DNA from: an uncultured Clostridia bacterium
GTDB taxonomy: Bacteria; Bacillota; Clostridia; TANB77; CAG-508
Direction: 5' to 3'
Assembly (NCBI GenBank): GCA_963557785.1
Contig: CAUWBF010000005.1
Span: 10,312-74,311, forward strand
Length of the DNA stretch: 64,000 nucleotides
Shown: positions 35,990 to 36,674 of the stretch, piece after piece
How the letters are laid out: each line of letters starts with the position of its first letter
Numbering within the stretch: the stretch's first letter is position 1
The notes under the pieces: model-generated
Seen by the model: only the letters and a program-made list of their open reading frames with translations
Databases searched by the model: none
What the model was told of the DNA's origin: nothing
Made by a program: the position numbers and the translations under genes

Positions 35990-36030
35990 TCATAATTTGA
36001 AAGATTATGTAGATTATGCTATAATATATT
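35990..36030 (+). promoter_or_regulatory. Plus-strand promoter with extended -10 (TGcTATAAT at about 36017-36025) driving the foreign-composition ORF
   Basis: TGnTATAAT about 70 nt upstream of the ATG at 36098. A second TTGACA-17-TACATT candidate lies at about 35959-35987. Confidence 0.5.
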
Positions 36031-36097
36031 TATGAAACCTTGTTGTATTTATTATTAATAAAAGAAATTTTTTCTATTTAATTAAGGAGGGCTTATT

Positions 36098-36559
36098 ATG
36101 TGTGAACAGAACAACAAGAAACAATTTGCTTTGGTGGATTATGACTACAACTTTATTTTATATGAGCTTCGGCCACTAATTGAGCGTTATTTCAGACGAG
36201 AAAACACTGATCTTAGCATTTTTGGAATCAAGGTTATCAATCGTGCAGAGGACATTGCTTCTTTGTTAGTTTTAACTACTAAGAAAACGCTTTGGTCTTT
36301 CAAGTATAACTTTGTAAATCCTGAGAATTGGGAAGTACATAAGTTGCAATCCAGTGCTAAACCGGTTGAAATCGTTGAACTTCGCAACCTGCGTTCTAAT
36401 TTTATCGAAATTCAGGGAATGTCACCTGTAGAAGCTGATGAAGCTTGTTTAAAGTTCTTTATTGACTCAAGTACCTGTCTTCAAAAAGAGGAACGTGCAA
36501 AACTTTTAGAAGAGTCTAAAAAGGCGGCTGAACTTAAGAAAGTAATGGAAAGTAATTAG
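36098..36559 (+). CDS. Hypothetical 153-aa cytoplasmic protein of foreign composition (orphan, no recognisable family)
   Basis: Perfect SD aaggaggg plus 7 nt before ATG. About 36-40% GC with CGT/CGG/CTG/CCG/GCG codons, versus about 25% GC and near absence of those codons in flanking genes. No TM segments. Followed by its own GC-rich terminator. Confidence 0.7.
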   Translation: MCEQNNKKQFALVDYDYNFILYELRPLIERYFRRENTDLSIFGIKVINRAEDIASLLVLTTKKTLWSFKYNFVNPENWEVHKLQSSAKPVEIVELRNLRSNFIEIQGMSPVEADEACLKFFIDSSTCLQKEERAKLLEESKKAAELKKVMESN

Positions 36560-36580
36560 AATCCCGATATCACATCTATT

Positions 36581-36612
36581 ATGGCGAGGAACAATCTTCC
36601 CCGCCATTTTTC
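36581..36612 (+). terminator. Rho-independent terminator of the foreign ORF (atggcg-aggaacaatcttccc-cgccat plus TTTT)
   Basis: 6-bp GC-rich stem with T-run, 22 nt after the stop codon. Confidence 0.55.
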
Positions 36613-36674
36613 TTGCACTTTTAATTGTTTTCACTCATATAATACTAATATAAATTTTATATTGGAGGATTATT

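Follow-up and report, generated by a model that had tools for sequence, protein, structure and literature searches.

A small, previously undescribed protein family of uncultured gut Clostridia, carried in a probably old, self-contained gene cassette of persistently atypical composition

The stretch of DNA analysed here (the window: 64,000 nucleotides (nt) of contig CAUWBF010000005.1, from an uncultured Clostridia bacterium with a host genome GC content of 26%) carries on its forward strand a gene for a small soluble protein, here called X, between a divergently oriented gene of a GT4 glycosyltransferase and asnB. A preliminary description had singled X out as a compositionally foreign orphan gene. 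X was found to belong to a very small protein family, whose genes carry their own predicted promoter, ribosome binding site and terminator in all four of the chromosomal contexts in which they occur, and retain an unusual base composition in each of them. The features of the locus are as follows.

36098 to 36559, + strand: coding sequence (CDS) of protein X, 153 amino acids (aa), soluble, from the open reading frame (ORF) listing and its translation.
35997 to 36002, + strand: -35 hexamer TTGAAA of the predicted cassette promoter, 17-nt spacer to the -10 element, 11/12 match.
36017 to 36025, + strand: extended -10 element TGcTATAAT, from the consensus promoter scan.
36054 to 36082, + strand: A/U-rich leader stem-loop directly 5' of the Shine-Dalgarno (SD) sequence in the minimum free energy (MFE) fold, with the inner stem AGAAA/TTTCT at 36063-36075.
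36084 to 36091, + strand: SD sequence AAGGAGGG, 6 nt from the ATG.
36581 to 36613, + strand: predicted intrinsic terminator of X, a hairpin at 36581-36607 (-13.4 kcal/mol, z = -2.6) followed by a T-run.
36090 to 36104, + strand: left copy of a 15-nt direct repeat, GGCTTATTATGTGTG, spanning the X SD spacer and the first X codons.
36667 to 36681, + strand: right copy of the direct repeat, GGATTATTATGTGTG, spanning the asnB SD spacer and start.
36636 to 36643, + strand: -10-like CATATAAT between the X terminator and asnB, noted for its conservation in X-bearing lineages.
36675 to 38484, + strand: asnB, downstream of the cassette, with a frameshift due to one inserted nucleotide (C at 36849).
34577 to 35869, - strand: GT4 glycosyltransferase, the divergent left neighbour and synteny anchor.

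The expression signals around X are largely those which the preliminary description had read there. The promoter (35997-36025) is of a near-consensus sigma-A type and does contain the extended -10 element; the leader from it to the SD region is about 70 nt long. The G+C-rich terminator hairpin is also present, directly followed on its 3' side by the T-stretch ATTTTTC, and was passed over by the consensus scanner because it contains an internal mismatch. The strong SD sequence was likewise recovered, although its spacing is 6 nt and not the 7 nt given earlier. X is monocistronic with these signals of its own. It lies 115 nt upstream of asnB and, as had been stated, on the strand opposite to the native operons: of 57 long ORFs in the window, the + strand carries no more than 5, X included. 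Transmembrane (TM) segments, which had been said to be lacking, were not predicted, nor was a signal peptide (maximum Kyte-Doolittle value with a window of 19 residues, 1.27; N-terminus polar). The promoter is apparently strong, and X may be expressed constitutively. An Rfam scan of 35500-37200 yielded chance-level matches only (E >= 1).

X is a real protein-coding gene under purifying selection. Comparisons between its orthologues gave proportions of nonsynonymous differences (pN) of 0.19-0.37 and of synonymous differences (pS) of 0.67-0.80, with a ratio of nonsynonymous to synonymous rates (dN/dS) of at most about 0.17. The reading frame is kept in 27 proteins of 115-158 aa, and 62 alignment columns are invariant among five homologues. 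Residues W78, Q84 (within the motif IQSSA), K45, E94 and F120, together with the block F.EIQGMS..EA..AC..FF, are shared across the family, while conservation of H81 and R99 is confined to smaller subsets of it. The family comprised 5 clusters in a word-indexed search of 5.8 billion clusters and 18 clusters when 1.84 billion representatives were searched exhaustively with an HMMER profile. In agreement with the earlier remark that X could not be placed in any family, the protein alone had no match in Pfam, NCBIfam, PHROGs or PADLOC (E <= 1), nor among PDB sequences by phmmer, and the 22-member profile or set had none in Pfam (E <= 5) or among PDB sequences. Searches of X by tblastn against 50,697 phage records and against plasmid records, of its model by Foldseek against BFVD (E <= 0.001), and family-pattern scans for relatives in GTDB genomes, IMG/VR and JGI metagenomes were also negative. 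X and its homologues form a very small, previously undescribed family of uncultured, very low-GC gut Clostridia (Candidatus Merdicola-like metagenome-assembled genomes (MAGs) and their relatives), hosts which we take to be of the TANB77 type.

The history of X at its site was followed in related GTDB species, through 80 loci that were collected with the GT4 gene as a probe and are 79-91% identical in it; they come from MAGs of Candidatus Merdicola and of other uncultured Clostridia. A homologue of X was present in one of the 80 (L009; same site, 45% identical), and no member of the family was found in L010-L088. The site is empty in at least 14 related GTDB species, in which 226-347 nt separate the GT4 start from that of asnB (MCGIVGF...). 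The ATG of X lies 229 nt from the GT4 start in the window and 223 nt from it in L009; since asnB begins in these 14 loci where X begins, X has been inserted with respect to most relatives. Orthologues at the same site occur in L001-5, L008, L009, L096 and L100, with 45-71% protein identity, and the metagenomic contigs with P0002, P0004, P0005 and P0008 have the same order of GT4, X and asnB, with X 64-71% identical. The P0008 copy (L096) has acquired an in-frame stop and is a pseudogene. Identical copies of X were recovered in two independent metagenome assemblies.

The insertion is old. At conserved amino acids of X, the same codon is used in a fraction of 0.46-0.57 of cases, against 0.42 expected at saturation (window, L001, L008 and L009), and in the flanking GT4 gene in 0.62-0.70, against 0.61-0.62 expected. 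Because codon memory has been eroded to a similar degree in both, X has been diverging for about as long as this neighbour. No integrase, transposase or tRNA gene was called in flanks of 8-10 kb (L001, L089 and L092) or on the shorter contigs, and the locus holds no vector-like sequence. The only repeat at the site is the 15-nt one, the two copies of which are 577 nt apart and cover the two SD and start regions; it may be a scar left by the insertion, or two initiation regions may resemble each other by chance. At the position of the -10-like element upstream of asnB, all X-bearing lineages have CATATAAT, or CATATA in L008 and L009, which is unlike the asnB leaders of empty-site species, and this putative element is probably a replacement promoter of asnB.

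Besides the arrangement GT4|X>asnB (context A), the cassette was found in three others. In context B (RluA>X<P-type ATPase; L089, L092, L095, L097 and L101) it lies between an RluA-type pseudouridine synthase gene and a convergent ATPase gene, in context C (VanW>X>S11 D,D-carboxypeptidase; L102) between two genes of the same direction, and in context D (Amidase_3|X>X'>AMP-dependent ligase; L103) there are two tandem paralogues. The members outside context A are more distant, with 23-33% identity. A perfect TGnTATAAT was present in 14 of 14 cassettes from the four contexts, TTGAnn at a spacing of 17-18 nt in 13 of them, a leader of 53-76 nt and a hairpin with a T-run terminator in all, and a strong SD sequence in each case (GGAGG in 13, AAGGAG in one). 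The terminator stems covary by compensatory changes, e.g. GGCGAG..CTCGCC versus GGTGGG..CCCACC. TAAT before the -35 hexamer (in TAATTTGA) occurs in most, not all, of the 11 copies of contexts A and B and in the first L103 copy, and the window and that copy have in common CATAATTTGA...TATAATATAT(T/C)TATGAAAC. Since this architecture is common to all 14 copies, the promoter belongs to the cassette and not to the host site. No association with phages, plasmids or other mobile elements was seen in the neighbourhoods, phage and plasmid records, IMG/VR, BFVD or JGI contigs.

Of 12 leaders, 11 have a small A/U-rich stem-loop directly 5' of the SD sequence in their MFE fold; the single folds are weak (z of +0.3 to -2.1), and the stems vary by context (AGAAA/TTTCT, CAGAAA/TTTCTG, TTGAA/TTCAA, ATAAAAA/TTTTTAT, GTTACTA/TAGTAAC), so that a conserved leader stem-loop near the SD sequence is only hinted at. 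Some further details of individual cassettes were recorded. At L103:4911-5974 each of the two tandem cassettes has its own TGGTATAAT promoter, leader hairpin, SD sequence and terminator, with GC contents at third codon positions (GC3) of 0.22 and 0.29. In the context-B leaders (L089, L092, L095 and L097; 20-45 nt 5' of the X ATG), an AAYCC-type stretch is predicted to pair with GGAGG(U)U around a small GAA..TTC hairpin. Such pairing could mask the SD sequence, the folds being individually non-significant. An 85-nt G+C-rich insert with hairpin-forming repeats (GGGCCGTGCATATTCGCAAAGCGAAATGCACATGCGTGCGTCGAAAGCTCTGCTTTCGC..., L089 ~6432-6525), found only in L089, lies 3' of the X terminator and may be a small repeat element.

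X evolves several-fold faster than its neighbours. In context A its pN is 0.19-0.22, compared with 0.035-0.09 for GT4, asnB, YlbF and RecJ in the same genome pairs; between L095 and L101 its dN is 0.061 and dS 0.186, versus 0.005 and 0.069 for RluA, and positive selection on X is suggested. The pair L089 and L092 has a mosaic pattern: the flanks are 85-86% identical at the nucleotide level (dS of 0.27 for RluA and 0.57 for the ATPase), but identity falls to 61% in the body of X (pS 0.88), while its codons 1-26 are almost identical, third positions included (same codon in 16/21 vs 17/66 positions; Fisher test, 6e-5, with the cut chosen post hoc). This indicates that a divergent allele has taken the place of most of X. 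Targeted hypermutation, as by a diversity-generating retroelement, was considered and rejected, with no reverse transcriptase or repeat nearby.

The atypical composition and codon usage, which had been judged by eye, held when computed. X has a GC content of 0.359 and a GC3 of 0.333, outside the normal range of the window and about 11 median absolute deviations (MAD) from the median of its 57 long ORFs (median GC3 0.121, MAD 0.019); the sole other outlier is dxr (39006-40187; GC3 0.28). CGN codons make up 7 of the 8 arginine codons; their share is 4-6% for window genes overall, and the four other + strand genes reach 15% (binomial p ~1e-5 for the excess). None of the 10 isoleucine codons is ATA, although this codon accounts for 67% over the whole set of window genes and for 40% on the + strand (p ~0.007). 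AAG, GAG, CAG, CTT, AAC and ATC are commoner in X than in window genes. This composition is a trait of the family and no timestamp of a transfer, because all 14 copies examined, including those of the three other contexts, share high GC3 and CGN usage: GC3 ranges from 0.22 to 0.52 in X and from 0.11 to 0.19 in flanking genes, X being above its flanks in 14 of 14 cases. In the whole family, 43 of 54 arginine codons are CGN and 9 of 66 isoleucine codons are ATA. At the four invariant arginine columns of six context-A copies CGN is used in 24 of 24 cases, with one column CGG and another CGT in 6/6 lineages, while leucine columns switch freely between the TTR and CTN boxes.

Since the anomaly is present in all contexts and lineages, active maintenance of the GC3-rich composition is favoured over passive amelioration. 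The cause may be GC-biased gene conversion (gBGC) linked to recombination, or selection on codons or decoding. Lassalle et al. (2015, PMC4450053) have described how GC3 is linked to recombination in bacteria; X resembles the genes described there in having GC3 above its surroundings together with evidence of intragenic recombination or allelic replacement, and differs from them in that its excess is very large (2-3 fold) and limited to one gene of about 450 nt. The stronger argument that synonymous sites are fully saturated and the composition therefore maintained was toned down, about 20% of codon memory being left in context A. Three other causes were rejected. Selection for mRNA structure gave no consistent signal (window transcript z of +0.64, L089 copy z of -3.4 versus shuffles). 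High-expression codon bias is not seen in pyruvate kinase of the window (GC3 0.11) or fructose-bisphosphate aldolase of L089 (0.16), and the rise in X of G-ending codons (AAG, GAG, CAG) alongside C-ending ones also speaks against it. A strand effect does not fit asnB and three other + strand genes, which have ordinary GC3 and AGA/ATA usage.

Genes of raised GC3 were also met elsewhere in these loci. At L089:4072-4476, L089:12088-13425 and L092:656-1012 these are a SleB-like Hydrolase_2 gene, with values of 0.34-0.36 in two lineages, and a PIN-PhoH gene with 0.37, most neighbours being at 0.14-0.20. There may be a genome-wide minority class of persistently GC3-rich genes in such AT-rich genomes.

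An AlphaFold2 (AF2) model of X, made from a 12-sequence alignment, had a pLDDT of 85.7 and a pTM of 0.75. X is predicted to form one helix (residues 17-34) on a four-stranded antiparallel sheet (41-48, 53-60, 65-72 and 87-94), a cystatin/NTF2-like alpha+beta arrangement, followed by three C-terminal helices (96-104, 110-123 and 127-152). No catalytic signature was found in X. To proteins of cystatin-like and NTF2-like folds (the Tim44 C-terminal domain, cystatins, VirB8 and NTF2-like proteins of unknown function) it has a sequence identity of 5-19% and no profile match, and the three-helix extension (residues 96-152) is additional to these folds. The cystatin fold has a helix on a five-stranded antiparallel sheet, and the sheet of the model is four-stranded. 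The inhibitory motifs of cystatins (N-terminal Gly, QxVxG in loop 1 and PW in loop 2) do not occur in that order: in X the conserved NPENW (74-78) comes ahead of LQSSA (83-87), and neither their order nor their spacing fits. The NTF2 cone is composed of three N-terminal helices and a sheet of 5-6 strands, in contrast to the single helix before four strands in the model, and none of the 22 members matched a Pfam family, SnoaL/NTF2 included (E <= 5). Because the cystatin motif order is wrong and the NTF2 cone incomplete, X is placed in neither family, and the model is taken to represent a generic helix-on-sheet binding fold.

The following explanation is proposed for these observations. X would be carried as a self-contained unit of a sigma-A promoter with an extended -10 element, a leader of 53-76 nt with a stem-loop, an SD sequence, the ORF and a terminator. 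The cassette would have been inserted between GT4 and asnB in an ancestor of several of today's species, displacing asnB from its original leader, and X would since have been inherited vertically and lost or pseudogenised in some lineages. The protein would be made constitutively, stay in the cytoplasm and act by binding to another macromolecule, whether as an inhibitor, as an immunity-type protein or as a decoy; diversifying pressure on it, combined with allelic exchange, would account for the fast evolution, the mosaic alleles and the patchy presence. The earlier guess of an immunity, anti-defence or small effector protein would fit the fast and mosaic evolution as well. The GC3 of 2-3 times that of the flanks, with CGN in place of AGA and no ATA, would be sustained by recurrent recombination (gBGC) or by codon-level selection. 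We regard the part that concerns anatomy and history as very probable. The joint proposal of an old, self-contained cassette whose product is a soluble, immunity-like binder or inhibitor stands at about even chances, and the functional part by itself, a constitutive binder or inhibitor, is put forward tentatively, as possible rather than probable. A bolder version is clearly unlikely: the X cassettes would be unrecognised autonomous single-gene modules, which colonise intergenic sites without a recombinase of their own and encode an inhibitor or immunity-type protein that diversifies rapidly and swaps alleles between species through recombination. Its GC3-rich coding sequence, poor in AGA and ATA, would be kept up actively, by biased gene conversion or by selection on decoding, against an AT mutational pressure that ranks among the strongest known.

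Two known systems invite comparison. The moron concept of Hendrix and Juhala reportedly refers to phage units of promoter, gene and terminator that are of atypical composition and sit between conserved genes. X is similar in being a single gene with its own promoter and terminator, off-composition and placed between genes that are adjacent in relatives, but it lies outside any prophage, with no phage or mobile genes within 8-10 kb on each side where loci are long enough. Its neighbours are housekeeping genes, its insertion is old and vertically inherited, and the cassette occupies four chromosomal sites. New here are the protein family and a non-phage variant of the moron-type autonomous cassette with a persistent compositional anomaly. 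Immunity proteins of polymorphic toxins, said to have been surveyed by Zhang, Aravind and colleagues in 2012, are reported to include NTF2-fold families. X resembles orphan immunity proteins in being small, cytoplasmic, fast-evolving, patchy and mosaic, with a common binding fold and an apparently constitutive promoter, a likeness drawn from description. It differs from polymorphic-toxin immunity proteins in having no adjoining toxin or immunity-gene array and no PADLOC or Pfam immunity-family match, and from the immunity proteins of variable islands in its chromosomal position, conserved across species.

Several points weigh against the proposed explanation. Many members of the family are known from short metagenomic contigs only, and the cassette is present at four sites although it has no recombinase. 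Transcription from the X promoter is a prediction. The mosaic evidence comes from one pair with a post hoc breakpoint, and dN/dS is below 1 in every comparison. The GC3 excess could reflect slow passive amelioration from a donor with a GC3 of about 0.55-0.6, given that context-A orthologues keep synonymous codon identity some 20% above random expectation and not at zero. No toxin, protease or defence gene consistently adjoins X in the four contexts; the sole neighbour resembling a toxin gene is an RHS locus (L092/L093), which has a small downstream gene of its own and lies on the opposite strand, with one gene, RluA, in between.

Recent acquisition, or even engineering, of a foreign cargo gene bearing its donor's composition was the preferred reading of the preliminary description. 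It is in line with the GC3 of 0.33 versus 0.12, with the atypical CGN and ATA usage, with the lack of X at the same site in 14 related species and with a rearranged region, in which the reported asnB frameshift and the stump of an ABC ATPase gene (38581-38946) are both real and dxr is GC3-rich. That X was inserted is upheld by the empty sites, but its recency is contradicted by same-site orthologues of 45-71% identity, the synonymous divergence of which, in the four tested, is near saturation as in GT4, and by the same anomaly in members of three other contexts. Identical genes in independent assemblies, the lack of vector-like sequence, mobility genes and tRNA at the locus and of any phage, plasmid, IMG/VR or JGI match also count against it, and an engineered cassette is at odds with the same gene standing at the same site in other species-level lineages with nearly saturated synonymous sites. 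We consider this reading very improbable. X is at the same time not a conserved native gene of all relatives, an outcome that had been named as speaking against an insertion: the gene recurs with its site and composition in several lineages, but most relatives lack it (present in one of the 80 GTDB loci). The idea that X is no gene at all, and instead a chance ORF, a non-coding RNA or a DNA element, could draw on the lack of any family annotation and on the L089 copy, which folds better than its shuffles (z -3.4). It is practically negligible in view of a dN/dS well under 1 with saturated synonymous sites, a frame kept over 115-158 aa in 27 proteins, the confident AF2 model, the lack of an Rfam match and a window transcript without excess structure (z +0.64).

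The remaining alternatives concern the function of a genuine, long-resident gene. X might be a native, lineage-specific regulator or accessory factor of the envelope or spore cortex, once widespread and mostly lost, whose rare codons (CGN, with one invariant CGG, in place of AGA, and no recourse to ATA) were selected to tune or gate translation. Its neighbours are frequently linked to peptidoglycan or the envelope (GT4 in context A, VanW and the S11 D,D-carboxypeptidase in C, Amidase_3 in D and, two genes off, the SleB-like Hydrolase_2 gene in B), the sporulation genes SpoIIP, YtfJ and DUF1540 occur in the same loci, the invariant arginine columns are CGN in 24/24 cases, with one CGG in 6/6 lineages despite third-position turnover elsewhere, and the leader stem-loop beside the SD sequence is conserved in position. 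The cassette is, however, transcriptionally autonomous in each context, so that its neighbours say little about function; Clostridia are rich in envelope and sporulation genes, whose association with X may be due to chance, and the sigma-A type promoter gives no hint of sporulation-specific expression. Fast protein divergence, a pseudogene (L096) and absence from most relatives would be odd for a core regulator, and CGN persistence is perhaps partly mutational, as CGY to AGA takes two transversions. This alternative is considered unlikely. An NTF2-like small-molecule binder or enzyme with a pocket of the SnoaL/ketosteroid-isomerase type, which the near-invariant K45, W78, Q84, E94 and F120 (H81 and R99 in subsets) could line, is quite improbable: the model is a cystatin-like minimal version of one helix and four strands and not a full NTF2 cone, no SnoaL/NTF2 profile was matched, and fast surface evolution and mosaic alleles are atypical of metabolic enzymes.

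Atypical composition is usually read as a sign of recent horizontal transfer. For X it is no clock, because the anomaly is kept in every member, in four contexts and in lineages whose synonymous sites have largely turned over. The gene is thus a compact and tractable case (~450 nt) of what holds a GC3 of 0.3-0.5 in a genome of 26% GC, be it recombination or gBGC, selection acting on codons or tRNAs, or alleles imported again and again. Fast-evolving, strongly promoted orphan proteins such as X are also good candidates for conflict or interaction functions in little-studied gut Clostridia. Should X instead be an old import without any special function, whose composition is ameliorating slowly, the result is a useful caution and not a discovery.

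Several minor observations were made on the genes around the cassette. An RHS-repeat toxin gene (879 aa) and a downstream gene of 129 aa are located just 5' of RluA in L092:1548-5471 and L093:26-3549, and not in L089; they are a variable toxin island beside the X site. In the GT4-proximal half of the intergenic region of the window (35941-35988) there are inverted repeats, TAAATGTAAA / TTTACATTTA and AAATGTAAATATTTT / AAAATATTTATATTT, whose TGTAAAT core is invariant in 8 of 8 aligned lineages, empty-site ones included, and which may be an operator of the GT4 promoter.

The asnB gene is disrupted independently in three X-bearing lineages (window 36675-38484, L001:10567-12415 and L096:5832-7660). 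The inserted C of the window occurs also in an independent assembly (L006), and the gene is in pieces of 514 and 98 aa in L001 and of 64, 302 and 256 aa in L096; in most empty-site species it is open for >400 aa. Displacement from its original leader by the cassette may have started the decay of asnB. Empty-site L014, L018, L033 and L024 have a palindrome in the asnB leader, (G)CACATAA(A/G)GTT(A/G)C...TTTATGTAAA, about 30-60 nt 5' of the ATG. It is found neither in empty-site L010 and L023 nor in X-bearing genomes, which have TTGCAC...CATATAAT instead, and may be a regulatory element of asnB lost at the insertion. A T-box or other asnB leader in the spacer between X and asnB was rejected, the spacer being 115 nt long and without an Rfam match.

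Further downstream, the ORF at 38581-38946 encodes the C-terminal third (last 121 aa) of an ABC ATPase. In L001 the region between asnB and Ham1 contains an intact MacB-type ABC exporter (FtsX permease, ATPase and MFP), a gene for 76 aa and a two-component system; at the position of this exporter the window has the ATPase remnant and dxr (39006-40187). The dxr orthologues in L023 and L014 are GC3-rich as well (0.28-0.30), a persistent composition like that of X.

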